Of a DNA stretch of 32,000 nt, positions 6,367 to 32,000 are shown in pieces (within the stretch, counting starts at the first letter, position 1; every line of letters begins with the position of its first letter). The position numbers were made by a program, and so were the translations under genes. Source of the DNA: Candidatus Intestinimonas stercoravium (GTDB taxonomy: Bacteria; Bacillota; Clostridia; Oscillospirales; Oscillospiraceae); assembly GCA_019117605.1 (NCBI GenBank), contig DWZK01000076.1, positions 1,962 through 33,961 on the forward strand, in the 5' to 3' direction. Below the pieces are notes generated by a model. The model was given only the letters and a program-made list of their open reading frames with translations, was not told the DNA's origin and searched no databases.

Positions 6367-8025
6367 TCAGTTCAAATCGATATACAGGTCTTTCTTGTCC
6401 TGGAGCACGGTGTAAGCGCACAAGAGGGCCACGGTGCCATCGATGCGCTCCCGGCTGTCCAGCGCCTTGACGGGCTGGATGTTGCCGTTGACGTCGGTCT
6501 TGATCTGGGTGTTGGCCAGGCACCACTTGTCGATGGGATTATCGTCATAGATGATGCGGTGCGCCTGGAAGTCGGCCCGCAGGTCTTTCATAGGCTGGGA
6601 TAGGGTGAGCGCGCCCTGCCGTACCGGCACCATGGAGTTGGGGCCGAACTCTGCCCGGAACTCCCGCAGGAGAGTGTCGTCGATGTGCCATGGATCGTAG
6701 CCAATGAACACGACGTAGAGGTCCTCTTGGTCCCGGAGCTCCTTGAACCACTCCAGGAAGATGCGTTTGTCGCACTTGTTCCCGGGGCAGGTCCGCATGA
6801 GGCCTTGATCCACCCAGAGGGAATAGGGCGCGTTGTCCCTCTCCCGGCGGCTCCCCTCACCGGCCTGCCTGTCCAGCACCGCCTGGGGCAGCCAATACAT
6901 GGAGCGGACGTAGATATTGGGATCGCCGGGTCGCATACAGATGGCCTTAGCGGCGTTGAGGTCGGTGGTATCGGCGGCATCGAAGCCGCCGATACAGTAA
7001 TCGAACTTGATGAGGCCCACCCAGCGTCCGTCGTGGTCCAGCTCCTCCCACCGGAGCCAGGCGCTCTCGCTGGTCTGGGGCATATTGAAGTCCTTGACCA
7101 TGACCGTGGGCTTGAAGGCCGGGTCGTCCTTGGCCTTCTGGACCATCTGCTCCAGGTAGTCCCGGCTCTTGATGGTGCCCAGGCCCGGGTTGGCTTTCTC
7201 CCAGCAGCCGGGGTCGTCCCACTCCTCCGGCGCGTCCAGGGTGTACAGGAAGGGCAGGAACCGCCGGTTCTGGGCCTTGCCGTCCAGCACGTCGCAGGCA
7301 TACTGGAACTGGGCGTCAAAGACGCCGTTCCGGATGAAGCCGTTGGTGGAGATGCAGAACAGGAGGGGCTGGGACCGGGCGCCCATGCCCTGCTTCACCA
7401 GGTCGTAGAGGTCCCGGTTCTTGATGGCCGAGAGCTCGTCGATGGTGGCGGCGTGGACGTCCAGGCCGTCCAGGCTGGAGGTGTTGGAGGCTAGGGGTTT
7501 GATGAAGCCCAGATTGGCCGGGCAGTAGAGGTCGGCTACCCGCTTGCGCAGGTACCGGGACAGGTGGGGCGACTGCTTGACCATCTTGACCACGGCGTCG
7601 TAGCCCAGGGCGGCCTGCTCCCGCTTGGTGGCCAGGTTGTAGATCTGGGGCGCGCCCTCCCCGTCGTTGACCAGCAGGTCAATCTCGATGCCGGCGGTCT
7701 CGGTGGTCTTGCCGTTCTTCCGGCCCTCCACGATGAGAACCTCCTGGTACTGCCGCAGGTCGTTGTCGTCCACAAACCCGAAGATGGCCTGGAGCCGGGC
7801 CTTCTGGAAGAGCTGGAGGCGCAGGGGCGTGCCCAGCTTGCCGGTGGGGGTCTTGCAGAAAAGCTCGATGAAGTCGATGTGCCGCTGGGCGATGTCCTCG
7901 TCGAAGTGGAACTCGCCGGGACAGGCCAAGTTCTCCAGCAGCAGCTCGGCCACCTGCTTCATCCGCCGGCAGGCGGGGATCTTCCCGTCCAGGAGGGCGG
8001 TGAAGTAGCGCTCCAGATCGGTCAC
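6367..8025 (-). CDS. terL: Terminase large subunit (Terminase_1-type)
   Basis: 552 aa. Walker A-like EGRKNGKTT. GTG start overlaps the TerS stop (GTGA). Followed by the portal gene. Confidence 0.9.
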   Translation of the reverse strand: MTDLERYFTALLDGKIPACRRMKQVAELLLENLACPGEFHFDEDIAQRHIDFIELFCKTPTGKLGTPLRLQLFQKARLQAIFGFVDDNDLRQYQEVLIVEGRKNGKTTETAGIEIDLLVNDGEGAPQIYNLATKREQAALGYDAVVKMVKQSPHLSRYLRKRVADLYCPANLGFIKPLASNTSSLDGLDVHAATIDELSAIKNRDLYDLVKQGMGARSQPLLFCISTNGFIRNGVFDAQFQYACDVLDGKAQNRRFLPFLYTLDAPEEWDDPGCWEKANPGLGTIKSRDYLEQMVQKAKDDPAFKPTVMVKDFNMPQTSESAWLRWEELDHDGRWVGLIKFDYCIGGFDAADTTDLNAAKAICMRPGDPNIYVRSMYWLPQAVLDRQAGEGSRRERDNAPYSLWVDQGLMRTCPGNKCDKRIFLEWFKELRDQEDLYVVFIGYDPWHIDDTLLREFRAEFGPNSMVPVRQGALTLSQPMKDLRADFQAHRIIYDDNPIDKWCLANTQIKTDVNGNIQPVKALDSRERIDGTVALLCAYTVLQDKKDLYIDLN

Positions 8026-19209: not shown

Positions 19210-19443
19210 TCAACTGACACTTTTCTCCCCTGCTCTAGGCAGCTCCCGACCGTAGAGGGCATCAATGGAGCAATGGAGAGCGACCGCCAGCTGAGGAGCC
19301 AGCGACCACTTGGGGTCTGAGATCCCACGCTCCCACTTGCCTACGGCCTGCTGGCAGACACCCAGCTTCTGGGCCAGGGCGGCCTGGGAGAGCCCCTGCT
19401 GTTCCCGCAGCGTCCGGATGTTGTTTCCCACGGTTTTGATCAC
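19210..19443 (-). CDS. Cro-like XRE-family HTH regulator
   Basis: ...IRTLREQQGLSQAALAQKLGVCQQAVGKWERGISDP... First gene downstream of a consensus promoter and divergent from the repressor. Exact start is uncertain (GTG 19443 or GTG 19431). Confidence 0.75.
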   Translation of the reverse strand: MIKTVGNNIRTLREQQGLSQAALAQKLGVCQQAVGKWERGISDPKWSLAPQLAVALHCSIDALYGRELPRAGEKSVS

Positions 19444-19556: not shown

Positions 19557-19579
19557 TTGGGGTGAAAGGGGGTGAACGC

Positions 19580-20203
19580 ATGTTCGGTCAACGTCTGAAA
19601 GCCCTGCGCGCAGTCCATCAGATCTCCCAGAAAGACCTTGCGTCGCAGTTGTTTGTGAGCCCACAGGCTGTTGGAAAGTGGGAACGTGAGGAGGCCACTC
19701 CTAACCCGGAGACAGTACGCAAGCTCTCCGAACTTTTCGATGTCTCCGCCGACTACCTGTTGGGCCGGGAGATGAGCCCGAACGTAAGCCCCGCGTCCCA
19801 CACGCTGCGGGTCCCGGTGCTGGGCGTGATCCAGGCCGGAGTGCCCATGGACGCCATTGAGGACATCCTGGACTGGGAGGAGGTCCCCGCCTCCTGGGCC
19901 AGCGGAGGCCGGGAGTACTTTGGCCTGCGGGTGAAGGGGGACAGCATGTACCCCAAGTACCTGGAGGGGGACACGGTGATCCTGCGCAGGGACAGCATCT
20001 GCGACAGCGGCGACGACTGCGCGGTGCTGGTCAACGGCGACGCAGCTACCCTGAAGCAGGTGCTCCTGCGGGAGGACGGCGCGGTGGAGCTGCGCCCGGT
20101 GAACCCCACCTATCCGCCCCGCACCTACTCCCCCGCTGAAGTGGAGTCCCTGCCGGTGCAGGTTATCGGCGTAGTGGTGGAGCTGCGCCGTAAAATTAAA
20201 TAA
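19580..20203 (+). CDS. CI/LexA-like phage repressor (XRE HTH plus S24 self-cleaving peptidase domain)
   Basis: N-terminal ...ISQKDLASQLFVSPQAVGKWEREEATP... C-terminal ...YFGLRVKGDSMYPKYLEGDTVILRRD...DCAVLVNGDAATLKQV... gives the Ser/Lys dyad context of S24 peptidases. AAGGGGG RBS precedes ATG 19580. Confidence 0.85.
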   Translation: MFGQRLKALRAVHQISQKDLASQLFVSPQAVGKWEREEATPNPETVRKLSELFDVSADYLLGREMSPNVSPASHTLRVPVLGVIQAGVPMDAIEDILDWEEVPASWASGGREYFGLRVKGDSMYPKYLEGDTVILRRDSICDSGDDCAVLVNGDAATLKQVLLREDGAVELRPVNPTYPPRTYSPAEVESLPVQVIGVVVELRRKIK

Positions 20204-20245: not shown

Positions 20246-21205
20246 ATGGAGCTGTTCGACTTTGTGGCGGTGGACTTTGAGACCGCCACACGCCAATACA
20301 ACAGTGCCTGTTCCATCGGAATTGCCGCCGTGAAAGACGGAGAAGTCGTCGAAAACTTCTACTCCTTGATCCAGCCTCCAAACCTGGAATTTGAACCGGA
20401 TAATATCCAGATTCACGGTATTACGCCGGAGATGGTCAAAAATGCACCAACATTTGATGATGTCTGGCCCAATATCCAGAAGTTCTTCGGTCCTCACCTT
20501 GTAATCGCCCATAATGCCCGGTTTGATATGCTGGTATTGAAACATTCTCTGGGCTGGTTCCGCCCGGAAGATTTTCACTATGTGGACTCTGTATCCATTG
20601 CGAAGGACTTCGTTCCCGGCAGCAAATCTCTCGCACACTGCGTCCAACATTTCGGTATTGAAATGGGATGTCACCACAATGCTCTGGATGACGCCCTTGC
20701 CTGTGCCAATGTGGTACAGTGCTGTCTGAATGCCTCTGACGCCAAAAACATCGGTCAGCTCTGCTTTTCTCAGCCCAATATCAAGATCCATTTGTTTTCT
20801 GAGCTGTCTGATTCGGAGCGAGAGTTCAGCACCCGGAAGAAATCCTCAACGCCGGTTTGGAAACGGACCTCCGCCGTCCGACCGGCCGATATTACCCCTT
20901 GTACCGACTCATTCTGCTGTGCACATCCGCTCTACCAGAAGAACATCGTGTTCACCGGCGAACTGTCCATAGACCGGGCCGTCGCCATGCAGATGGCCGT
21001 GGATGTGGGAGCAGTGGTCAAATCCGGTGTCTCCGGGAAAACCGACTATCTGGTGGTGGGAACGCAGGATCTGGCGTTGGTGGGCGCGGACGGTATGAGC
21101 AGCAAAGAGGAAAAGGCCTATGCCCTGAATCAGACGGGCAAGGCACACATCAAGATCATCCGCGAACAGGAGTTCATCGACCTGGTTCGCGCCGTGGAGG
21201 TTTGA
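20246..21205 (+). CDS. DEDDh (DnaQ/epsilon-like) 3'-5' exonuclease fused to a C-terminal BRCT domain
   Basis: ExoI VAVDFETA, ExoII IAHNARFDMLVL, ExoIII HHNALDDALACANV. C-terminal IVFTGELS..DRAVAMQMAVDVGAVVKSGVSGKTDYLVVG is a ligase-type BRCT pattern. CAGGAG RBS lies 7 nt before the ATG. Confidence 0.8.
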   Translation: MELFDFVAVDFETATRQYNSACSIGIAAVKDGEVVENFYSLIQPPNLEFEPDNIQIHGITPEMVKNAPTFDDVWPNIQKFFGPHLVIAHNARFDMLVLKHSLGWFRPEDFHYVDSVSIAKDFVPGSKSLAHCVQHFGIEMGCHHNALDDALACANVVQCCLNASDAKNIGQLCFSQPNIKIHLFSELSDSEREFSTRKKSSTPVWKRTSAVRPADITPCTDSFCCAHPLYQKNIVFTGELSIDRAVAMQMAVDVGAVVKSGVSGKTDYLVVGTQDLALVGADGMSSKEEKAYALNQTGKAHIKIIREQEFIDLVRAVEV

Positions 21206-21884: not shown

Positions 21885-22184
21885 ATGCCCATCCATCTCC
21901 CTGACGATCTGGTCACACAGCTGCCTGCCCTGGCCCGGAAATACGGCGCCCAGCGGCTGGTGCTGTTCGGCTCCCGGGCCCGGGGCGACCACCGCCCCCG
22001 CAGCGACATCGATCTGGCTATTTATGATATGCCGGAGGAGAACCGGGGGGGCTTCTGGCTGGAGGTCGAAGAACTTCCCACCTTGCTGAAATTTGACCTT
22101 GTCCACATCTCTCCCGGCATGGATCCCGTATTCCTCGGCAACATCGAAAAGGACGGTGTGACGCTCTATGCTTCAGAAGATTGA
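21885..22184 (+). CDS. Minimal nucleotidyltransferase (MNT / MntA-like antitoxin)
   Basis: ...LVLFGSRARGDHRPRSDIDLAI... is the GSxxxG...DxD nucleotidyltransferase core. 99 aa. Overlaps the downstream HEPN gene by 17 nt. Confidence 0.8.
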   Translation: MPIHLPDDLVTQLPALARKYGAQRLVLFGSRARGDHRPRSDIDLAIYDMPEENRGGFWLEVEELPTLLKFDLVHISPGMDPVFLGNIEKDGVTLYASED

Positions 22185-22668
22185 AAACTATAAACGCGCT
22201 CTGGCGCAGCTGGAGGAAGCCGTCAAACGCTACCGGCAATCTCCGGAGGATACACTGTACCGGGACGGTCTGATCCAACGCTTTGAGTTTACTGTAGAAC
22301 TGGCCTGGAAGTCCATGAAGGAATATCTGGAGGACCAGGGCATGGTCCTCTCCATCGCCTCCCCCCGCGGGATCCTGAAAGAAGCCTACGCCGCTGGTGC
22401 CCTCGAGGATGGCGACCAGTGGAACAAGATCCTGACCGCTCGTAATTTAACTTCCCATGTCTACGATGAGGCCACAGCATCTAACATCGCGCAGCAGATC
22501 TGCGCGGAGTTTCTGGACCCGTTACAAGCTCTCATGCACTTGTATGAGGGAGAACAGACGACCCCCTTCGATTCCGCCGTCGATCAGGCACACCTGCGCC
22601 AGACTATTGCCGGCCTGGACGCTGGAAACGGTTCGCCCTACAAGCTGAGCGAGACGGAGCATAAGTAA
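22168..22668 (+). CDS. HEPN-domain protein, HI0074 / nucleotidyltransferase substrate-binding family (HepT-like toxin)
   Basis: N-terminal ...NYKRALAQLEEAV..., plus ARNLTSHVYD, which contains the Rx4H HEPN motif. At 166 aa it has about 30 extra C-terminal residues. Confidence 0.75.
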   Translation: MLQKIENYKRALAQLEEAVKRYRQSPEDTLYRDGLIQRFEFTVELAWKSMKEYLEDQGMVLSIASPRGILKEAYAAGALEDGDQWNKILTARNLTSHVYDEATASNIAQQICAEFLDPLQALMHLYEGEQTTPFDSAVDQAHLRQTIAGLDAGNGSPYKLSETEHK

Positions 22669-22672
22669 AAGA

Positions 22673-22692
22673 GCCGGGGCTGCGGCCCCGGC
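22673..22692 (+). terminator. Stem-loop after the HEPN gene
   Basis: GCCGGGGC-TGCG-GCCCCGGC, followed by CTTTAAAAG. The T-tract is weak. Confidence 0.45.
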
Positions 22693-22749
22693 CTTTAAAA
22701 GTCCATTTATCGAACACTTGTGCTGTTTGTCGAAGCGGGAGGTGTTACT

Positions 22750-24237
22750 ATGGACGCTGCCCAATACCTGCGCAAGTCCCGGATGGAGGAGGGCATGGAC
22801 ACAGAGGAAGTGCTCGCCAAGCACCGGAAGGCTCTGGCGGAGTACGCCGCCGCCCACGGGGTCCATATCATCGAGACCTACTACGAGGTGGTCAGCGGCG
22901 AGAGCCTGTACGCCCGTCCGGAGATGCTGCGGCTCCTGGAGGACGTGGAGGACGGGAAGTATGATGCCGTACTAGTGATGGACCTGGACCGTCTCTCCCG
23001 CGGCCGTATGAAAGACCAGGGCATCATCCTGGACGCCCTTCGGGAGTCTGGCACTCTCATCATCACCCCGGAGAAGACCTACGATCTCTCCGACGATCTG
23101 GATGACGAGATGGCGGAGTTCAAGACCTTTATGTCCCGCCGGGAGTACAAGATCATCAATAAGCGCCTGCGCCGTGGTCTGCGTCAGACCATCCAAGAGG
23201 GCTGCTATGTGGCCAACGCCCCTTACGGCTACCGGAAGGTCACTGTAGACCGCAAGCCCACCCTGGAGATCGTAGAGGAGGAGGCCAAGTTCGTCCGTAT
23301 GATGTACGAGATGTATGTGGACGGATTCGGATGCGTCTCCATAGCCCGCCACGTCAACTCCCTGGGGGCAAAGCCCCGCCGGACCGACGCTTTCAGCAGG
23401 AACTCCGTGGCCAATATCCTGAAGAACCCAACATATATCGGGAAGATCGTATGGGACCAGAAGAAGCACATCCGTAAGGGCAGCAGAGGCAACCCGAAGC
23501 ACATCACCATCTACCAGCCTCGGGAGCAGTGGACCATCGTGGATGGTATCCATCCCGCCATCGTTTCCAAGGAGCTCTACGAGAAGGCCCAGGCGGTCAT
23601 GGCTGGCCGCTATGTCCCAGCCTCCAATGATGGCACCGTCCGGAGCCCCTTGGCCGGCCTGGTCCGCTGTGCCAACTGCGGACACCACATGCAGCGCATG
23701 GCGGTAGGCACCAAACAGCCCTACCTTCTGTGCAACACCCCCGGCTGCTGCGCCAGCGCTAAGTTCGACCTGGTAGAGCAGGCCATCCTAGACCACCTAG
23801 CCAAGCTCTTGGCAGAGCTTTCCGTGAGCAGGCCGGCGGCGGAAGTCAAGGGGACGGACTACCAGGAGGCCCGATTAGAGACGCTTCGGAAGGAAGCTGC
23901 CGCCGCTGAAGTGCAGAAAGGGCGGCTCTATGATCTGCTGGAGCAGGGCGTTTATGATGTAGCCACTTTCCGGGAACGTATGGAGAAGGTGAAGGCCCGG
24001 ATCTCTTTCCTGGAGCGGGAGAGCTCCTCTCTACAGCGGACCATTCAGGCCGCGCGGCAGCTGGACCCGCAGATCCTTGCGGCCCGGATCCGCGCGGTGC
24101 TGGATGCCTATCAGGAGTCGGACCCGGCCCATCGGAACGCTCTGCTCCGTAGCGTCTTCGACGTAGTGTGGTACACCAAAGAGAAGAAGACCAAGCCTAC
24201 CGACTTCATCCTTCGATTTGACCTCAATCCCAACTGA
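22750..24237 (+). CDS. Large serine recombinase (phage integrase)
   Basis: N-terminal resolvase-type catalytic region AQYLRKSRMEE...DAVLVMDLDRLSR. Recombinase and zinc-ribbon region (CANCGHHM...LLCNTPGC) and a C-terminal coiled coil follow. GGGAGG RBS precedes ATG 22750. Confidence 0.85.
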   Translation: MDAAQYLRKSRMEEGMDTEEVLAKHRKALAEYAAAHGVHIIETYYEVVSGESLYARPEMLRLLEDVEDGKYDAVLVMDLDRLSRGRMKDQGIILDALRESGTLIITPEKTYDLSDDLDDEMAEFKTFMSRREYKIINKRLRRGLRQTIQEGCYVANAPYGYRKVTVDRKPTLEIVEEEAKFVRMMYEMYVDGFGCVSIARHVNSLGAKPRRTDAFSRNSVANILKNPTYIGKIVWDQKKHIRKGSRGNPKHITIYQPREQWTIVDGIHPAIVSKELYEKAQAVMAGRYVPASNDGTVRSPLAGLVRCANCGHHMQRMAVGTKQPYLLCNTPGCCASAKFDLVEQAILDHLAKLLAELSVSRPAAEVKGTDYQEARLETLRKEAAAAEVQKGRLYDLLEQGVYDVATFRERMEKVKARISFLERESSSLQRTIQAARQLDPQILAARIRAVLDAYQESDPAHRNALLRSVFDVVWYTKEKKTKPTDFILRFDLNPN

Positions 24238-24287
24238 CCGGCGGCCCTTTCCCTATCTGCCGGATGCCGGATATTATTAGTTTATAA

Positions 24288-25043
24288 AGTGCTATATCTT
24301 CCGATAAGGACTGCATCGAGGACCTGCGCTTCTACCCCACTCAGAGCTCCCAGTGCGCCATCGACCGCGCCATCAGCGTGAAGGCCGGGAAAGCCGAGCT
24401 GCTCTATGTGTACATCGACGTGGAGCCGGTGGGCTTCAACCGGGGCTTCTTCACTGTGGACGTCCGCTATTTCTACCGGGTCACCGCCGACGCCTTCGTG
24501 GGCGCCGCCCGGCCGGTGGAGATCAGCGGCCTGTGCGTCTTTGACAAGCGGGTCATCCTCTTCGGCAGCGAGGGGAACGCCAAAGTCTTCACCTCTCAGA
24601 CCTCCCTGGAGAGCCTGGGCGAGCAGGAGCTCCGCTGCACCAACCTCCCCACCGCCGTGGTAGAGGCCGTGGATCCGATCATCCTGGGGATGAAGCTGGT
24701 AGACGTATGCGAGTGCCGTCCCTGCGACTGCGAGCTCACCGAGATCCCCCCCTGTATCTGCTCCTGCTTCGGCAGCGACCTCAGCTTCGGCAGCGAGGGG
24801 AAGCGGGTATATGTCACCCTGGGCCAGTTCTCTCTGATCCGCCTGGAGCGCGAGACCCAGCTCCTTATCCCCGCCTATGACTACTGCATGCCCGAGAAGG
24901 AGTGCACCTGCGGCGGCTGTGAGGACGATCCCTGCGAGATCTTCCGCCAGGTGAAATTCCCGGTGGATGAGTTCTTCCCCCCCAACAGCCTCCACAGCGG
25001 CGGCTGCGGCTGCAATATCCCTGAGCCCGGCTGCTGCAAGTGA
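24288..25043 (+). pseudogene. 3' portion of a Cys-rich host gene, apparently split by the prophage
   Basis: The frame is open from just after TAA 24285-24287 and reads SAISSDKDCIEDLRFYPTQSSQCAIDRAIS before the first possible start (GTG 24378). That start has no RBS. The protein-like upstream stretch contains no ATG, GTG or TTG. Confidence 0.55.
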
Positions 25044-25194: not shown

Positions 25195-26058
25195 ATGATG
25201 GAGATCCATATCCAAAACGTCGGCATGACCTACCCCAACGGGAGGCAGGCGCTGAAAGATCTCACCCTCGACCTGCGCGCCCCAAGCCTGGTCGGCCTCC
25301 TGGGCCCCAACGGCGCGGGCAAGTCCACGCTGATGAAGCTGCTGGTGGCCGCTCTGTCGCCCACATCCGGCTCTATCCAGGTGGACGGGCGCCCTCTCGC
25401 AGAGGCGGAGGGGCTGCTGAAGGCACAGCTGGGCTATCTGCCCCAGGACTTCGGCCTGTTCGATGAGCTCACCGCGGCCCAGTTCCTGGACTATATGGCC
25501 GCGCTGAAGGGCCTGCCCGCCCCCCGGGCCGCCGTCCAGGAGGCGATCCGGGCCGTCTGTCTGGAGGAGAGAGCGGCGGCCAGGATCCGCACTCTGTCGG
25601 GCGGCCAGCGCCAGCGGGTGGGGATCGCGCAGGCCCTGCTGGGCGGCCCCCGCCTCCTGATCCTGGACGAGCCTACGGTGGGACTGGACCCGGAGGAGCG
25701 CATCCACTTCCGCAATCTGTTCTCCCAGACGGCCCAGGACCGTCTGGTCCTCCTGTCCACCCATATCATCGAAGATGTGCAGTCGGTGTGCGACCGGCTC
25801 GTGGTCATCGACCGCGGCGAGATCCTCTTCACCGGGACGCCGGCACAGCTGATCCAGTCCGCCGCCGGTCATGTAGGGGCCTTCTGGGAGCTGGAGGCCG
25901 CACAGGAGGAGGGGATGCACATCACCGCCAGGGTCAACACCAGCCGTGGCATCCGGTGCCGGGCCGTGGCGGAGACGCTGCCCCCGTATGCCCAGCGGGA
26001 GGAGCCCTCGCTGGAGGACGCCTACCTCTATCTGATCTCCAGGGAGGGCGACCGATGA
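25195..26058 (+). CDS. ABC transporter ATP-binding protein
   Basis: Walker A GPNGAGKST, signature LSGGQRQR, Walker B LLILDEPT. AAAGGA RBS is present. Confidence 0.9.
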   Translation: MMEIHIQNVGMTYPNGRQALKDLTLDLRAPSLVGLLGPNGAGKSTLMKLLVAALSPTSGSIQVDGRPLAEAEGLLKAQLGYLPQDFGLFDELTAAQFLDYMAALKGLPAPRAAVQEAIRAVCLEERAAARIRTLSGGQRQRVGIAQALLGGPRLLILDEPTVGLDPEERIHFRNLFSQTAQDRLVLLSTHIIEDVQSVCDRLVVIDRGEILFTGTPAQLIQSAAGHVGAFWELEAAQEEGMHITARVNTSRGIRCRAVAETLPPYAQREEPSLEDAYLYLISREGDR

Positions 26059-28241
26059 AAGGGCTGCGGCTGTTCCCTCTGGAGCTGGGACGGCTCCTGC
26101 AGAGCCGTCTGACCTGGCTGGCGGCCCTTCTGACCGTGCTGTCCCCTTTGACGGGCCTCTTCCTGTACAGAACCACCTCCGCCGGCACCATGCTCTCCAT
26201 GTACCTTGCCGACCCGGCCGTCGCGGGCGGCATCGTGGGCGGCATCCTGTTCGGGCTGCTCACGGTGTTCGAGCTGGACCGCTCGGCCCGCAGCCGTGTG
26301 GACGTGCTGCTGGACGCGGCAGTCTCTCCCCTCTGTATGGCCCTGGTGCGCCTGCTGGCCCTGACCGCGGCCGCGGCGCTGACAGCAGGCATCACCATGC
26401 TGGTGTGGCTGCCCATCAGCCGCGGCCTGATCGGCTCCGTCTTCAGCGGTGTGGACTATGTCCTGGCCTACCTCCTCTTTATGGGCCTGGCCCTCCCCCT
26501 GGCCATCCTGGCCGCCGCCTCAGCCTATCAGTTCACCCGGCGGGCGGACCTGTCTCTGGTGCTCTTCGCCGCCTTCGCCGGGCTCAGCCTGACCGTCTGG
26601 GCGGATGACTGGCAGCTCTGCTGGCTCAACCCCTGCGTGTGGGCCCTGTCCGATGATTTTACCAACTTCCGGCTGTTCCGCTCGGTGGCATATATGCGCT
26701 TGACCTGGCTGGCGGCGCTCTCCGGGCTCTGGGCCCTGTCCCGGCTGTGCGTCCGCCAGTACGGGAAGGGGCCCTTGGGGTCCCTGGTCCGGAACGCCCG
26801 GCGGGCCTATCGTCCGGCCATCGCCCTGCTGCTCTTGGCCTGTTCCGGCACTGCCTACGCGGCCCAGCCCTTTTATGATGACAGCGACCCGGATCTGAGT
26901 GCGGCGCAGCTCTATGAGCTGGACTACGCCCAGGGCGTCACCTTCTTAAACCGCACCATCCAGCTGATGCCGGACACCGAGGCCGGGACGGTGGCGGGCC
27001 GGGCCGTCTACCGCTTCCAGAATACCTCTGGCCGGGGGTGGACCGCCTATTTCGGACTGGACCCGGGCTATGAGCTGAATGCCTCCATCAACGGCACTGA
27101 GCTCCCCGCCGTCCGCACCGGCTATGAGGAGAGCAACATGGCCCTTTGGGAGCTCTCCATTCCGGAGGGCGAGCAGGTGGAGCTGGAACTGGAGTATGGA
27201 GGGTTCCCCAAGGACTGGAACATCTCCTCCACCAGCCAAGGTGCACCGGAGGTCAGCGGGGTATACCTGTGCCTGGAGAACCAGCGGCTGGCCCCCTACC
27301 TGCTGAACGTGCTGCCCGGGGAGACGGGCTATCCCACCACTGTGGAGATCACCCTGCCCGCCTCCATGACCGCCATTCCCTTTGGGCCCAGCGATGCGTC
27401 AGTGATCGCGGAGAACGGGGACGGCACCAGGACCTGGCGCTATGAGAGCAGCAGCCGGGGCGGCATCCTCTATGCCGGGGACTATATCCGGGAGGACATC
27501 GAGGCCGGCGGCATCACCATAGCGTTCTACTACGGCCGCAAACATCAGGCCGTGATGGAGGCCGCCGGGGCGGCAGAGGCCGTGAAGGCAGTGGTGGACT
27601 ACTGTACCGAGCATTACGGCCCCCTGTCCTTTGGCGCGGGCGGCACTCTCAAGCTGATCCAGAGCAGGGTCTCTGGCGGCGGCTATGCCGCCGACGGGGC
27701 CAGTCTGATGGACGAGCAGGATCTCACCGCCGCCGATCTGGAGGACCGAGGCAAAGGCGCTTCCGCCGGCGAGGTGATGATCCATGAACTGGTCCACCAG
27801 TGGTGGGGCCTGGGCAACATGTTCGACAGCGCCGGGGACGCGAGCCCCTGGTCCGCGGAGGGCCTGACCGTCTACACCACCTACCGCATCGTCAAGGCCC
27901 TCTATGGCGAGGCATACGCCCGTGAGAACTATATAGCCCACTGGCAGCAAGTCGTGGACGACTACTATCTGGATTTCTATGTCCGCCATCCGGAGCATCT
28001 GGAGAGGCTGCCGGAGGAAGCGCGGCTGGAGATATCCAACAGCTTGACCTATGTGCGTCAGTACTGCGAGATGCCGCTGAAGATCCTGAAGGCCGAGGCG
28101 CTGGTCGGCGGCGAGGATGCCTTGGACCAGATCCTCCACGACCTGTTCGTCCGAGAGCTGGACCCGGCATATCCCTACCTGACCTATCAGGACTTTTTAG
28201 ACGCCTGCGGGCTGAAGGAGGAGGACCTGGACCTTGCGTAG
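26055..28241 (+). CDS. ABC-type permease domain fused to an M1-family (gluzincin) peptidase domain
   Basis: ATG 26055 overlaps the ATPase stop (ATGA). The N-terminal ~300 aa is multi-pass hydrophobic. The C-terminal domain has HELVHQWWG...WSAEG (HExxH plus a distal Glu) near 27783-27860. Confidence 0.75.
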   Translation: MKGLRLFPLELGRLLQSRLTWLAALLTVLSPLTGLFLYRTTSAGTMLSMYLADPAVAGGIVGGILFGLLTVFELDRSARSRVDVLLDAAVSPLCMALVRLLALTAAAALTAGITMLVWLPISRGLIGSVFSGVDYVLAYLLFMGLALPLAILAAASAYQFTRRADLSLVLFAAFAGLSLTVWADDWQLCWLNPCVWALSDDFTNFRLFRSVAYMRLTWLAALSGLWALSRLCVRQYGKGPLGSLVRNARRAYRPAIALLLLACSGTAYAAQPFYDDSDPDLSAAQLYELDYAQGVTFLNRTIQLMPDTEAGTVAGRAVYRFQNTSGRGWTAYFGLDPGYELNASINGTELPAVRTGYEESNMALWELSIPEGEQVELELEYGGFPKDWNISSTSQGAPEVSGVYLCLENQRLAPYLLNVLPGETGYPTTVEITLPASMTAIPFGPSDASVIAENGDGTRTWRYESSSRGGILYAGDYIREDIEAGGITIAFYYGRKHQAVMEAAGAAEAVKAVVDYCTEHYGPLSFGAGGTLKLIQSRVSGGGYAADGASLMDEQDLTAADLEDRGKGASAGEVMIHELVHQWWGLGNMFDSAGDASPWSAEGLTVYTTYRIVKALYGEAYARENYIAHWQQVVDDYYLDFYVRHPEHLERLPEEARLEISNSLTYVRQYCEMPLKILKAEALVGGEDALDQILHDLFVRELDPAYPYLTYQDFLDACGLKEEDLDLA

Positions 28242-28947
28242 GATATTTGGATATGAGTGCAGGCGGCTGCTGTGCAACAAGTTTTTCTTCGGGATCTTGC
28301 TGGTGCTCCTCGCCTATGGCTGGCAGGTGCTGCGCAGCGTCACCATTTTGGGGGTGTCCCACACCGCCCCCTTCTCCCCCTGGAGCTTCGGGGACTATCT
28401 GAGCCGTCTGCTCCCCCTGCTGTGGCTCGGGGCCCTGTTCTTCCTGACCTTCTTCACCTCGGCCGGGGCCAGGCGCGCCGCCGCGCTCACCGGCGCCGCC
28501 CCGGTGGATCCCCGCCTCTATGCCCTGGTCCGGTGCGCCGCCGCCCTGACGGGGACCGGGCTGCTGGTGCTGGCCTGTCTGGCGGGAGCCGCTGTATTCT
28601 ACGGCCGCTATTTCGGCTGGTACGGGTGGGGGGAGCTGCTGGCCCCCGCAGCGGTCGCTCTGCTCCCTCCCCTGGTCTTTGCCCTGGGGAGCGGCTGGCT
28701 CCTGGGGCGCATCAGGCCCTGGCTGGTATACGTCTGGATGGCGGTCCCCTTCATATGCGCGGCCCTGCCGCTGCCGGCGGCTCTCGGGCTCTGGAACGGG
28801 ACCTTCTTCACCGGGTATCCTCTGACCCTGGATGCGCTGGACCCGGCATTCACAGTACCGGCAGCCGTCATGCTGGCCCAATGCGGGCTGCTCGCGGCCG
28901 GCGTCGCGCTGCTGGCGCTCCGCCCCGGCAGGAGCCGCCCCAGCTGA
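28234..28947 (+). CDS. Polytopic membrane protein (ABC-2-like accessory permease?)
   Basis: 237 aa with about 6 hydrophobic segments. TTG start overlaps the upstream stop. Confidence 0.6.
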   Translation: MRRIFGYECRRLLCNKFFFGILLVLLAYGWQVLRSVTILGVSHTAPFSPWSFGDYLSRLLPLLWLGALFFLTFFTSAGARRAAALTGAAPVDPRLYALVRCAAALTGTGLLVLACLAGAAVFYGRYFGWYGWGELLAPAAVALLPPLVFALGSGWLLGRIRPWLVYVWMAVPFICAALPLPAALGLWNGTFFTGYPLTLDALDPAFTVPAAVMLAQCGLLAAGVALLALRPGRSRPS

Positions 28948-29005
28948 CCGGATGCGGCGCACTGCGCGCCTCGTGCAGCATACGGCGGCCCCCTCCTGAC
29001 AAGAG

Positions 29006-29039
29006 GACGCCGCAGGACGGTCACCCGTCCTGCGGCGTC
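29006..29039. terminator. Bidirectional hairpin between convergent genes
   Basis: Perfect 15-bp stem GACGCCGCAGGACGG-TCAC-CCGTCCTGCGGCGTC. There is no clear U-tract on either strand. Confidence 0.5.
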
Positions 29040-29076
29040 TCTGTGTCCATATCGCTCTTCTGCCGTCCCTCTAGCC

Positions 29077-30459
29077 TCAGATCGTCACGACAGGCTCACA
29101 GCAGCGGTAGTCTGTGTCGATATCATGGGCGATGAAGCGCGCCCTGAGGTCCCGCTGCCTGCACATGCAGCCGGTCGGGCCGCTGGAGACGTCCAGGTCC
29201 TCCGGGAGCACGAATTTGATGCATTTGACCAATACGTCCCGGCAGGACGGATAGTCGTGGGCAGGGATGGTCATCGCCTTCATGCCCCGTTGATGCTCCA
29301 CGCCGTTCTCATCCACTTCGGTGAGGATCACCGCCAGGGCCACCCGCTTGCCGGGGCAGACGTTTTTGATCGTCACATCCAGCTGTACGATCCGGCCCTG
29401 GGACTCCAGATAGATGTCGCCCAGATCCACCGATACGGCGTCGGAGCACCCGGCCACGGTCAGATCTACCGGCACAGGGCACTCCTCGGGGTGGACCACC
29501 ACATCACATTCCACTGTGACCGTCGGCGCGGGGAAAGAGACCACGTTCCCCTCCGCGTCGGAGTAAGTGATGGACTCGTTGACCAGTTTGGTCCCCTGGG
29601 TCTGGCTCACATGCCGGACGAAGAATCCCAGCACGGCGCTCTCACTGGCGCTGACTCCCAGCTGAGGGATGGTCCACCGCAGGGACCGGGCGTCCAGCAT
29701 GGAAGCGGAGCCCTTGGCCGGCGTCAGCACGTTGGTGATCACGAGATCCGGCGAGACGACCTCATCGATCACGATATCGGTGGCGCCCGGCTTGGAGATA
29801 TTGGCCGCCAGTTCGGCGAACAGTTCCTCCAGATCCGCCGCGTTGGGCGTGATCGCCACATGGGCCGCGTCCGGATCGCTGGCCCACTCATTCAAAGTGT
29901 CCACATCCACGCCGTCCGATCCGACCAGCCCGATGCAGTAGATGATGATCCCCTGGGCCTTGGCCGCGGCGGCCACCGGAGCGGGCGGAGCGCCCGCCGT
30001 GGTGTTCCCGTCGGTGAACATCACGATCACCTTGGCGTTGCTGGACGCGAAGTCGAAGAGCTGTATCGCCTTGGTGAACGCGTCGGCGTGGTCAGTGTTC
30101 CCGCCGGCGCTCAGACTGTCCACAGCGTCCTTCAGCGTGTCCACAGAGGTGATGAGCTGTGTGTCTGCCACGGCGTCGCTGGCAAAGCTGACGATCCCGA
30201 TATGGCTGCCGGAGCCGATCTGCCCGTCCTTCACGCCGTCCGTCGCCTCTTCGATGATATCGATAAAGGTCTTGGTGCCGGCCTTCATGCTCGCCAGCGG
30301 CGTCCCCGCCATGCTGCCCGAGCGGTCCAGTACCAAGACGATGTCGGTGGGGTTCGAGATGATATCCGGAGCGGCCGTCAGGGCCAGCGTCACACGCAGA
30401 GTCCCATCGCAGCCGATGCGCTCCCTGTCGATCACCTTATTCGAGTTCGTAACACCCAT
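29077..30459 (-). CDS. von Willebrand factor A (vWA) domain protein with a Cys-bearing C-terminal domain
   Basis: AGGAGG RBS precedes ATG 30459. MIDAS motif VLVLDRSGSM plus ...VIVMFTDG... No obvious signal peptide. The 878-aa track ORF is this gene plus an off-frame extension through the MATE gene. Confidence 0.8.
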   Translation of the reverse strand: MGVTNSNKVIDRERIGCDGTLRVTLALTAAPDIISNPTDIVLVLDRSGSMAGTPLASMKAGTKTFIDIIEEATDGVKDGQIGSGSHIGIVSFASDAVADTQLITSVDTLKDAVDSLSAGGNTDHADAFTKAIQLFDFASSNAKVIVMFTDGNTTAGAPPAPVAAAAKAQGIIIYCIGLVGSDGVDVDTLNEWASDPDAAHVAITPNAADLEELFAELAANISKPGATDIVIDEVVSPDLVITNVLTPAKGSASMLDARSLRWTIPQLGVSASESAVLGFFVRHVSQTQGTKLVNESITYSDAEGNVVSFPAPTVTVECDVVVHPEECPVPVDLTVAGCSDAVSVDLGDIYLESQGRIVQLDVTIKNVCPGKRVALAVILTEVDENGVEHQRGMKAMTIPAHDYPSCRDVLVKCIKFVLPEDLDVSSGPTGCMCRQRDLRARFIAHDIDTDYRCCEPVVTI

Positions 30460-30587
30460 TCGTGTTACCTCCTTCTGGGGGAGCAGCCTCCCGTACCATC
30501 CTATGACGGGCCGCCCCCGGGCGACACCGCCTGTGCCGCCGCAGACAGAAGGAGCTCCAGGCCGCGTGCGCGCGCACGGCCTGTCTT

Positions 30588-31952
30588 TTACTTTTCCAGC
30601 AGGCTCCTCCGGCCCAGCGGCCGGTAGACTGTGAGATACATCGTCGTGAAGCAGGCCGCCCCGCCCAGCAGCTGGGACACCGCCTCGGCGATGAAGACGC
30701 CGCTGGTCCCGAAGAAAACGGGCAGGATGACAGTGAGGGGGGCGTTGATGAACGCTTTGCGCAGCAGGGAGAAGAAGATCGCCTGCCGCGCCTTGCCCAG
30801 GCCCGTGAACACAGACTGCCCCGCCAGCTGGAGAGACATGAAGATGAACAGCGCGAAATAGGTCCGGATCGCGGGGATGCCCGCCTGTATGACGGCCTCC
30901 TCGGTGGTGAAGATGCCCATCAGCATACCGGGCGCCGCCATGACGACCAGCCATACGAGGACAGAGTAGGCCACCACCACCAGGGCGGAGAAGCGGATGC
31001 CCTGCCGCACCCGCCCATTCTCCCCGGCGCCGTAGTTGTAGCCCAGCACGGGCTGGGAGCCGTTGGACAGGCCGGTCACCGGCATGAGGACCACCTCCCG
31101 GATGGAGTTGATGATGGTCATCACGCCCACATAGAGGTCGCCGCCCCAGGTCTGAAGGGTGGCGTTGCACACCACCTGCACCAGGCTGTTGGTCAGGTTC
31201 ACGAAGAAGCCCGCCAGCCCCAGGGAGAGGATCCGCTTCACCCTGGCCGCCGAGAGCCGCATCCGTGAGAGGCGCAGGTGGAGGATGGCCTTCTTCCCCG
31301 TCAGGAACACGAGGACCCACACCGCAGAGCAGGCCTGGGCCATGATCGTGGCCAGGGCCGCGCCCACCACTCCCATATCGAACACGAAGATGAAGATGGG
31401 GTCGAGCACGATGTTGACCACCGCGCCCAGGCCCACGGTCAGCATGCCCGTCTTTGCGAAGCCCTGAGAGTTGATGAATGGGTTCATGCCCAGGCCGATC
31501 ATCACGAAGACGGTCCCCAGGAGATAGATGGTGAGGTAGGCGTCGGCATAGGGGAAGGTGTCGTCGCTGGCCCCGAAGAGGTACAGCATGGGCCGCCTCA
31601 CCGCCAGGAAGAACACCGTGGCCGCCACGCCCAGGATGAGCAGGAGGGAGAAGGCGTTCCCCATCACATATTCCGCCTCTTCCTCCTCCCCCTTGCCCCG
31701 GCATATGGAGCACAGAGGCGCGCCGCCTACGCCACAGAGGTTCGCAAGGCCCATCAGGATCGAGATGATGGGCATGGTCAATCCCAGGCCGGTGAGGGCC
31801 AGGTGCCCGGGCAGACGGCCCAGATACATCCGGTCCACCACGCTGTAGAGCACGTTGATGAGCTGGGCCACCGTCATGGGTCCCGCCAGGCGCAGGATGT
31901 TTCCCGGCACGCTCCCTTTGGAGAAATCGCTCTTCTGTTGTCCTGCCATCAT
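30588..31952 (-). CDS. MATE-family efflux transporter
   Basis: 454 aa with 12-TM-like hydrophobic periodicity. The N-terminus ...ILRLAGPMTVAQLINVLYSVVDRMYLGRL... is typical of MATE/NorM-like proteins. Confidence 0.85.
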   Translation of the reverse strand: MMAGQQKSDFSKGSVPGNILRLAGPMTVAQLINVLYSVVDRMYLGRLPGHLALTGLGLTMPIISILMGLANLCGVGGAPLCSICRGKGEEEEAEYVMGNAFSLLLILGVAATVFFLAVRRPMLYLFGASDDTFPYADAYLTIYLLGTVFVMIGLGMNPFINSQGFAKTGMLTVGLGAVVNIVLDPIFIFVFDMGVVGAALATIMAQACSAVWVLVFLTGKKAILHLRLSRMRLSAARVKRILSLGLAGFFVNLTNSLVQVVCNATLQTWGGDLYVGVMTIINSIREVVLMPVTGLSNGSQPVLGYNYGAGENGRVRQGIRFSALVVVAYSVLVWLVVMAAPGMLMGIFTTEEAVIQAGIPAIRTYFALFIFMSLQLAGQSVFTGLGKARQAIFFSLLRKAFINAPLTVILPVFFGTSGVFIAEAVSQLLGGAACFTTMYLTVYRPLGRRSLLEK

Positions 31953-32000
31953 ATCCCCTTCTTTTCCTCGTTCTCTCCCATCCCGCCGCAGCCGTACGGG

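Follow-up and report, generated by a model that had tools for sequence, protein, structure and literature searches.

The 32,000-nucleotide stretch of Candidatus Intestinimonas stercoravium DNA analyzed here (the window) holds the right-hand ~24.3 kb of a siphovirus-type prophage, followed directly by a host gene that lacks its first 32 codons (Table 1). The prophage ends with the gene for a large serine recombinase (LSR), its integrase (int), and only 65 bp separate the int stop codon from the crossover at codon 33 of the host gene, hereafter the target. An earlier note, made from the letters of the window, had proposed that a serine-recombinase prophage splits a host gene at this place. Intact homologues, a matching 5′ fragment and in silico rejoining of the flanks bear this out. 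We put the probability at roughly 0.9 that the gene is split at codon 33 by the prophage, with the crossover mapped as described below, and that excision would restore the reading frame exactly.

Table 1. Features of the prophage, the split gene and the host flank in the window
Feature	Position	Strand	Basis and remarks
Siphovirus-type prophage, right-hand ~24.3 kb	1-24302	both	Called genes and Pfam on identical metagenome contigs, open reading frame list; left end outside the window
Structural and replication genes		minus	Tape-measure (cut by the window start), head-tail, capsid, S78 protease, portal, TerL (6367-8025), TerS-like, PcfJ, DUF3102, DnaB
Lysogeny module		plus
Cro-like helix-turn-helix (HTH) gene	19210-19431	minus	Divergent from the S24 repressor gene
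HTH and peptidase-S24 (CI/LexA-like) repressor	19580-20203	plus	Pfam on identical contig L001, PHROGs
Box CGAACACTTGTGC, resembling a LexA (Cheo) box or phage-repressor operator	22711-22723	plus	Follows a terminator hairpin (22672-22693) and precedes the int ribosome-binding site
LSR (integrase), 495 aa	22750-24237	plus	Pfam and NCBIfam matches
P half-site of attR, phage-derived, TATAAAGTGCTATATCTTCC	24283-24302	plus	Holds the in-frame stop TAA 24285-24287
Crossover dinucleotide GA	24303-24304	plus	First two bases of the Asp33 codon GAT
3′ fragment of the host gene, codons 33-278 and stop (246 codons)	24303-25043	plus	Alignment with full-length homologues; no start or ribosome-binding site of its own
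Host genes right of the insertion	25195-32000	both	ABC ATPase, 728-aa M1-like membrane protein, 237-aa open reading frame, VWA and CsxB-like gene (29077-30459, minus), MatE

The Host Gene Beside the Integrase Lacks Its N Terminus

The frame of the host gene is open from 24288, directly after the in-frame TAA, and continues for 30 codons (SAISSDKDCIEDLRFYPTQSSQCAIDRAIS) before its first possible start, GTG 24378. As the earlier note had stated, these codons contain no ATG, GTG or TTG, and the GTG is not preceded by a Shine-Dalgarno sequence. The note had also read the upstream frame as real protein, and from 24303 (DKDC...) it indeed aligns with residues 33 to 278 of thousands of homologues of ~277 aa; only the five codons SAISS (24288 to 24302) are phage-derived. 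With the 251-aa open frame as query, 6,669 protein relatives were retrieved, the full-length ones ~277 aa long, and the best full-length match (P0002, 278 aa) is 99% identical over the aligned part. The top-scoring homologue, P0001 (365 aa, NCBI), contains internal segment duplications, which either reflect a genuine tandem duplication or stem from assembly. The homologues start 57 codons upstream of GTG 24378, not at its equivalent, with MPEKVVPGPVQDSACIREAVCIHTKKIFDSCR followed by DKDCIEDLRF; the alignment of the window to them begins at DKDC, and the 32 N-terminal codons are missing. At the DNA level, an intact allele (L011, 99% identical) agrees with the window from GATAAGG (24303) on and departs from it directly upstream. 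Neither tblastn nor motif searches located the 5′ fragment in the window, the only match being that of residues 33 to 42 at 24303 to 24332.

That the gene is not split at all, and that a complete gene or a natural short variant begins at GTG 24378 behind a frame open by chance, is how gene callers treat the locus: they start the 3′ fragment at this GTG, giving a product of 221 aa here and of 219 to 221 aa in database entries. We give this reading almost no credence. Residues 33 to 57, which lie upstream of the GTG, are conserved in homologues, the GTG has no ribosome-binding site and homologues measure ~277 aa; the phage arm adjoins codon 33 in 23 further species-representative genomes; and the missing N terminus supplies a core strand in the predicted structure of the target.

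The int product matches the Pfam families Resolvase (PF00239, residues 4 to 151, E 2e-20), Recombinase (PF07508, residues 176 to 287, E 2e-25) and Zn_ribbon_recom, a Zn-ribbon (PF13408, residues 300 to 350, E 1e-6), and gives partial NCBIfam matches to CcrB and XisF. The motif YLRKS, read from the sequence, makes Ser10 the candidate catalytic serine. Judged by its domains and by the architecture of its attachment (att) sites, the protein is a bona fide LSR. Its closest counterparts in cultured phages are 38 to 42% identical, none in database phages exceeding 42%, and include the integrases of the sigK-inserted phage PhiS63 (40%) and of the Clostridium tetani phiCT site-A phages (38%), over 96% of the length.

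Twenty-one contigs with an identical integrase gene were read, of which the 10 listed each come from a different metagenome assembly. The junction to the truncated gene is identical in 10 of these 10, the called product at the target is 219 to 221 aa, and the host flank to the right of the insertion is 99.9% identical in L001, L003 and L004. The recurrence of the same junction in ten different assemblies excludes an assembly error. We found nothing in favor of a chimera of a phage contig and a host contig, although assemblies do tend to break near the att sites (short contigs L011, L165 and L152); with junctions of the same type present in isolate genomes as well, the chance that the arrangement is a chimera is negligible.

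The Crossover Maps to a GA Dinucleotide in Codon 33

Serine recombinases cut and rejoin DNA with a 2-bp stagger, and no bases are gained or lost. At this locus, GA is the only sequence common to attB (L011), attR (the window), attL (L060 to L063, L101, L165 and L171) and attP (L152, L155 and L158). Because GA alone is shared by both junction types and attB, the 2-bp crossover is the GA of Asp33, and the site lies within the most conserved N-terminal motif of the target, DSC(K/R)-DKDC. Junctions of the attR type read ...TATAARRYGCTATATCTTCC-GA-TAAGGA..., and those of the attL type ...GAYTCNTGCARR-GA-GNAAGATATAGCGYNTTATA.... The attP is a near-palindrome, TATAAAGYGCTATATCTTCC-GA-GGAAGATATAGC, an example from relatives being ATATAAAGCGCTATATCTTCC-GA-TGAAGATATAGCGCTTTATA.

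The phage arm TATAAAGTGCTATATCTTCC is conserved directly before the junction in related IMG/VR loci and in GTDB species representatives, and its mirror image is present in the attL and attP of relatives. The earlier note had pointed to an imperfect dyad as an arrangement of att half-sites. The two elements do stand in the window, CCGGATAT at 24267 to 24274 and ATATCTTCCG at 24294 to 24303, but they are not a pair of half-sites: CCGGATAT is not conserved in relatives, and the partner of TATAAAGTGCTATATCTTCC lies at the other prophage end.

Intact attP sites occur in five viral or metagenome contigs (L152, L155, L157, L158 and L159), in three of them (L155, L158 and L159) directly downstream of a related int. 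The arms form near-perfect inverted repeats in L152, L155 and L158; for the phage of the window, comparison of attR with L165, described below, gives symmetry at 18 of 24 positions. The attL of L062 matches the P′ arm of L155 and L158 exactly, and thus one phage has been observed both free and integrated. In a scan of JGI metagenomes, the attP of a relative was the only one found, and the window's own attL was not found. One 22-kb viral contig (IMGVR_UViG_3300029389_000183; L048/L066, L157) carries an intact target, from residue 14, at one end and an intact attP elsewhere; it could be a chimera from a mixture of lysogen and non-lysogen, or a phage near an empty site. L058, initially a candidate attL, was discarded as a chance pattern match inside a 558-aa open reading frame (ORF).

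Related integrases from IMG/VR (61 to 77% identical) adjoin the same 3′ fragment, starting at residue 33, and in three cases adjoin the 5′ fragment in the opposite orientation. The loci in which the integrase adjoins the 5′ fragment, the element being inverted relative to the window, are L025, L056/L032, L057/L031 and L171. With palindromic arms, the strand that bears the GA sets the orientation, which would account for the occurrence of both orientations.

For the phage of the window, the predicted attP is TATAAAGTGCTATATCTTCC-GA-TAAAGATATAGCATTTTATAAC. The attL of this strain is expected to read ...TTCGACAGCTGCCGA-GA-TAAAGATATAGC..., beside the lysis end, with a phage arm that may differ in detail from that of L165. 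Excision would be expected to produce the rebuilt attB junction ...GACAGCTGCCGA-GA-TAAGGACTGC... and the circular attP junction ...GCTATATCTTCC-GA-TAAAGATATAGC....

Rejoining the Flanks In Silico Restores a Complete Reading Frame

The earlier note had predicted that the missing 5′ part lies next to the other prophage end, outside the window. We searched for the 5′ side with the N-terminal 32 residues joined to the predicted translation of the P′ arm. This search returned short chimeric products of 33 to 70 aa, with the P′-derived tail in 108 of the best 120, and thereby at least 108 distinct truncated N-terminal products with such a tail. One of them, P0398, is encoded on a 591-bp contig (L165) from the same host species. 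There the DNA of the 5′ fragment is identical to the intact allele L011 at 98 of 98 positions, and the contig runs ...GACAGCTGCCGA-GA-TAAAGATATAGCATTTTATAAC, that is, the 5′ fragment fused to the matching phage arm, with ~60 bp of phage DNA. The long contigs of a relative (L160 to L164) show what comes after the 5′ stump: a 503-aa ORF, a holin, an endolysin and tail genes, as expected of the far prophage end.

Flanks were then joined in silico at the shared GA, and in all four cases they gave one continuous frame. In Flavonifractor sp. HCP28S3_F3 both ends lie in one locus (L101), and removal of an element of 5,067 bp leaves a 278-aa ORF. Removal of a 6,151-bp element from the complete genome AP025583.1 likewise leaves 278 aa, and joining the attL on L063 with the attR on L029 of Flavonifractor sp. 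An306 gives 276 aa. The attR of the window joined with L165 yields a 278-aa ORF, identical to P0002 at 275 positions.

Some points count against the structural reading as applied to this very prophage. The window's own attL is neither in the window nor on a long contig, and L165 measures 591 bp and comes from another sample. Its host species is the same, but it is not provably of the same assembly or phage as the window, because host identity and arm symmetry (18/24) are its only ties to this exact prophage. In a leftward walk, the contigs of the same phage ended in the tail-fibre region. A mosaic relative, reached through the cluster representative of a protein that lies beyond the window, is integrated elsewhere and was set aside.

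These comparisons support the following sequence of events. A temperate siphovirus inserted itself when its LSR recombined the near-palindromic attP, predicted above, with attB in the host gene, at the GA of Asp33. The lysogen is left with two pieces of the gene: a promoter-bearing stump of 32 codons, which runs on into a few codons of phage origin and lies beyond the window at the prophage's far end, and a promoterless, start-less fragment of 246 codons at 24303 to 25043. From two such pieces no intact protein can be made. The integrase together with a directionality factor would excise the prophage, and the ORF would be restored exactly because serine recombinases rejoin ends without gain or loss of bases.

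The Insertion Site Is Used Repeatedly

To gauge how widely the site is used, we took the 80 loci of GTDB species representatives most similar to the query. The phage arm stands directly before Asp33 in 23 of them (~29%), and in 16 of these 23 an integrase 63 to 74% identical to that of the window lies immediately upstream. In all 22 split loci whose 3′ fragment was readable, the fragment is open to the normal stop; no decayed one was seen. The hosts belong to Flavonifractor, Pseudoflavonifractor, Intestinimonas, Lawsonibacter and unnamed Oscillospiraceae, and junctions of the same type occur in isolate genomes (Flavonifractor sp. An82 and An306, Lawsonibacter hominis and AP025583.1).

Two of the elements are small and have no virion genes. 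The 5,067-bp mini-element of Flavonifractor sp. HCP28S3_F3 (L101:4946-10012) encodes an LSR, a DnaB remnant and a bPH protein. The 6,151-bp mini-element of AP025583.1 (L171:10097-16247), present in 97 indexed blocks of the assembly collection, has its LSR in the opposite orientation and encodes DUF305, HMA-like and 664-aa AAA-ATPase/methyltransferase proteins. Both retain an intact LSR, the att arms and the two gene halves.

The same gene family also harbors other elements. At L065, an LSR 46% identical to that of the window accompanies a cut that falls a few bases rightward of the GA core, and L047/L059 and L064 have similar cuts; the gene is cut here after DKD or DK. An ORF of 2,919 aa lies beside the junction in L047/L059. 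Near residues 105 and 155, breaks are adjoined by unrelated LSRs (23 to 29% identical). More distant homologues, including low-GC ones, in the IMG/VR loci L044, L045 and L049 to L055 are also interrupted, near residues 75, 165 and 170; in several of these loci an unrelated LSR stands at a distance of a few hundred bases. The Asp33 site itself is a hot spot in recurrent use.

The Target Is a Cysteine-Rich Protein with a σK-Like Promoter

The intact target has 25 cysteines in 278 aa (9%) and no signal peptide. A profile search gathered 1,437 cluster representatives of its family (clusters at 50% identity). The AlphaFold2 model of the target (pLDDT 82, pTM 0.78) consists mostly of long β-strands; in this model the strand of residues 21 to 45 spans the break, and a product beginning at residue 58 would lack it. 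An initial model, built on a shallow alignment, was of poor quality (pLDDT 53), and the PDB search made with it was meaningless and was dropped.

The σK consensus is AC at −35 and CATA---TA at −10. Among 64 distinct sequences from upstream of the target, 61 contain AC-N16/17-CATANNNT at a distance of 40 to 73 nt from the ATG, versus 0.6 expected from shuffled sequences, and the upstream consensus is GCACCAA-N13-CATAGAATGG. From these patterns, the target promoter appears to be of the σK type and conserved. A search of 1.3 Mb of host flanks for other genes with the motif gave two extra matches and was uninformative.

Cysteine-rich proteins that are made in the cytoplasm under late mother-cell control are typically components of the spore coat or exosporium (PMC7333573; bioRxiv 10.64898/2026.09.03.749163). 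Promoter and composition together suggest that the target is a late mother-cell protein of the spore coat or exosporium. Like CsxA/CsxC, CdeC and ExsY/CotY, it is a signal-less protein of ~280 aa within a range of 6 to 9% cysteine, with long β-strands predicted and a σK-like promoter; it differs from them in showing no sequence or fold match and no DUF3794/SPOCS match in Pfam (PMC7333573; bioRxiv 10.64898/2026.09.03.749163). A CsxB-like gene lies ~4 kb away in this host: the VWA gene has a precomputed match to PF27268 (CsxB, Clostridium exosporium-associated protein), and our own Pfam scan of this ORF gave VWA-type matches only, the scanned Pfam copy apparently being without the PF27268 model. 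This neighbor is specific to this host.

Several results weigh against this assignment. The target matched no Pfam family (to E 10) and no NCBIfam family, and 10 of its distant relatives matched none in Pfam (E up to 1). A profile search of PDB sequences gave no match, and the model had no PDB neighbor by fold (best E 0.03, TM <0.2). The DUF3794/SPOCS fold was not encountered in either Pfam or the PDB; as the PDB hits included no solved SPOCS structure, a structural relationship may nonetheless exist. The gene neighborhood of intact alleles is not conserved and therefore gives no functional clue.

Signals That May Control Excision

Excision by LSRs needs a separate recombination directionality factor. 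Within the part of the prophage covered by the window, no such factor was recognized: PHROGs searches of ten small or early ORFs gave HTH regulators only, and Pfam searches of the small ORFs likewise produced no candidate. A σK-like motif was absent, at medium and at strict stringency, from the window's prophage and from the L101 mini-element. Both results speak against excision timed by sporulation or are neutral to it. The signals that were found resemble LexA boxes. CGAAC-N4-GT(T/G)C boxes number three in the window (19574 to 19586, 21163 to 21175 and 22711 to 22723) versus 0.76 expected, and all lie in the lysogeny module. The first of them contains a perfect GAAC-N4-GTTC and overlaps the start of the S24 repressor gene. 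The box before int (ATCGAACAnnTGT) stands in the same place in many relatives, whose integrases are only 61 to 77% identical. On this evidence, int may be under SOS control through LexA-like boxes.

Two accounts of the insertion have to be weighed. On one, the prophage is a plain knock-out at a safe harbor: a conserved coding sequence provides a reliable attB, the gene is dispensable most of the time, and it is restored only upon induction or loss of the prophage, for example in the SOS response. The LexA-like boxes at the repressor/cro region and before int, the latter conserved in relatives, point this way, as do a prophage that appears complete and inducible (S24 repressor, full head and replication modules), the viral and metagenome contigs in which relatives appear with a free attP, and the lack of a sporulation promoter in the element. 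Less readily accommodated are the mini-elements, which keep an intact recombinase and att sites without phage genes, the 22 readable split loci with no decayed 3′ fragment, and the convergence of several LSR lineages on one gene family, a pattern typical of mother-cell genes. We consider the odds that excision is confined to prophage induction to be about even.

The other account is a developmental switch, in which the integrase and a directionality factor expressed in the mother cell would excise the element from the mother-cell chromosome only and so restore the ORF in time for σK-dependent expression, while the forespore keeps the prophage. It draws on the σK-like promoter and on a cysteine content like that of coat and exosporium proteins (PMC7333573). 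The closest cultured-phage integrases include those of sigK-inserted PhiS63 and of C. tetani site A, and the mini-elements L101 (5,067 bp) and AP025583.1 (6,151 bp) fit the pattern of domesticated elements (PMC4191935, PMC5595907). At other positions, this gene family is cut by several unrelated LSR lineages; of the 80 loci, 29% are occupied, and all readable 3′ fragments are open. Set against this, the window prophage and the L101 element contain no sporulation-type promoter, the conserved signal before int is LexA-like, no directionality factor was recognized, and the sporulation role of the target is itself deduced from promoter and composition. Many Flavonifractor and Pseudoflavonifractor strains are described as poor sporulators, which we also counted against a switch. 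Balancing the LexA-like signals and the missing σK motif against the likely nature of the target, the integrases of sigK phages and the mini-elements, we regard mother-cell-specific excision, as in skin and SPβ, as a serious possibility that falls somewhat short of even odds.

Relation to Known Gene-Intervening Elements

In mechanism and anatomy, the element is a gene-intervening LSR prophage of the SPβ/spsM and PhiS63/sigK kind (PMC4191935, PMC5499854, PMC3442830). The comparison with skin and SPβ drawn in the earlier note is therefore apt, with sigK-inserted phages among the closest integrases and a σK-like target promoter. This element and SPβ of Bacillus subtilis, with its SprA/SprB system (PMC4191935, PMC5499854), are both complete temperate phages that encode their large serine integrase at one end, and both are inserted within an ORF that precise excision rebuilds (here in silico). 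In SPβ that ORF, spsM, is a σK-transcribed gene for spore-envelope maturation; here the σK-like promoter is deduced from sequence. Mini-elements without phage genes exist in both cases, SPmini in B. amyloliquefaciens and the 5- to 6-kb elements here. The differences lie in the host class (here gut Oscillospiraceae), in the target (here uncharacterized), in integrases that are not close, and in an att core of 16 bp in SPβ versus a 2-bp GA between palindromic arms here. SPβ has SprB, whereas no SprB-like factor or mother-cell promoter was recognized here, and excision during sporulation is, for this element, a conjecture.

With the sigK elements, namely skin of B. subtilis, C. difficile and C. 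tetani, and PhiS63 (PMC3442830, PMC5553647, PMC5025042), the element shares an LSR at its end beside the junction, complete phages and degenerate elements at one site, and an orientation to the target that varies between hosts. Its target, however, is not sigK but a structural-looking cysteine-rich protein, and thus the element would gate one late product and no regulon. The closest parallels to the L101 and AP025583.1 elements are gin in gerE of B. cereus (PMC5595907) and vfbin and vrin (cited in PMC4191935), in that they are small, have no virion genes and carry an LSR and cargo between exact att sites in an ORF. Unlike gin, the element in the window is a full prophage, and what the mini-elements carry as cargo (DnaB remnant, bPH, DUF305/HMA, AAA-methyltransferase) bears no relation to that of gin. 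Our literature search found no paper describing this target or these hosts.

Other Features of the Prophage

Contigs with the identical integrase show an HK97-type capsid for the prophage. Directly upstream of int, at 21885 to 22668, lies a pair of NTP_transf_2 nucleotidyltransferase and NTase_sub_bind genes that resembles an MNT/HEPN toxin-antitoxin system, and ahead of this pair, at 20246 to 21205, an RNase_T-like exonuclease with a weak BRCT match. A contig from ENA (L147, NODE_1454_length_44021) has a near-identical order of structural genes and a 129-aa tail protein that is 91% identical, but its phage is not in the target gene, and its lysis end adjoins an SLH-domain gene. That so similar a phage is integrated elsewhere argues that the integration module is exchanged between otherwise similar phages.

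Implications

Most known cases of prophages and prophage remnants that interrupt and rebuild sporulation genes come from Bacillus and a few pathogenic Clostridia. We offer, tentatively and as something less probable than its opposite, the view that a cysteine-rich and apparently σK-driven gene is a major hot spot for programmed rearrangement in gut Oscillospiraceae, entered by at least three LSR lineages, and that excision in the mother cell rebuilds a spore-envelope protein. If this is true, developmental excision of the skin and SPβ type would be common in abundant human-gut commensals. New in any case are the target, an unannotated gene family; its hosts, abundant commensals of the gut; an attB/attP pair defined to 2 bp; and an attachment site in very wide use (23/80). 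Promoter and composition provide a functional hypothesis for the protein family. For annotation, the finding carries a warning, since many database entries of 219 to 221 aa and of 33 to 70 aa are halves of one gene. The LSR/att system is compact, with short and defined sites, and belongs to a type that genome engineering looks for. Should excision be tied to sporulation, the spore properties of these gut bacteria, and hence possibly their transmission, would be modulated by lysogeny.

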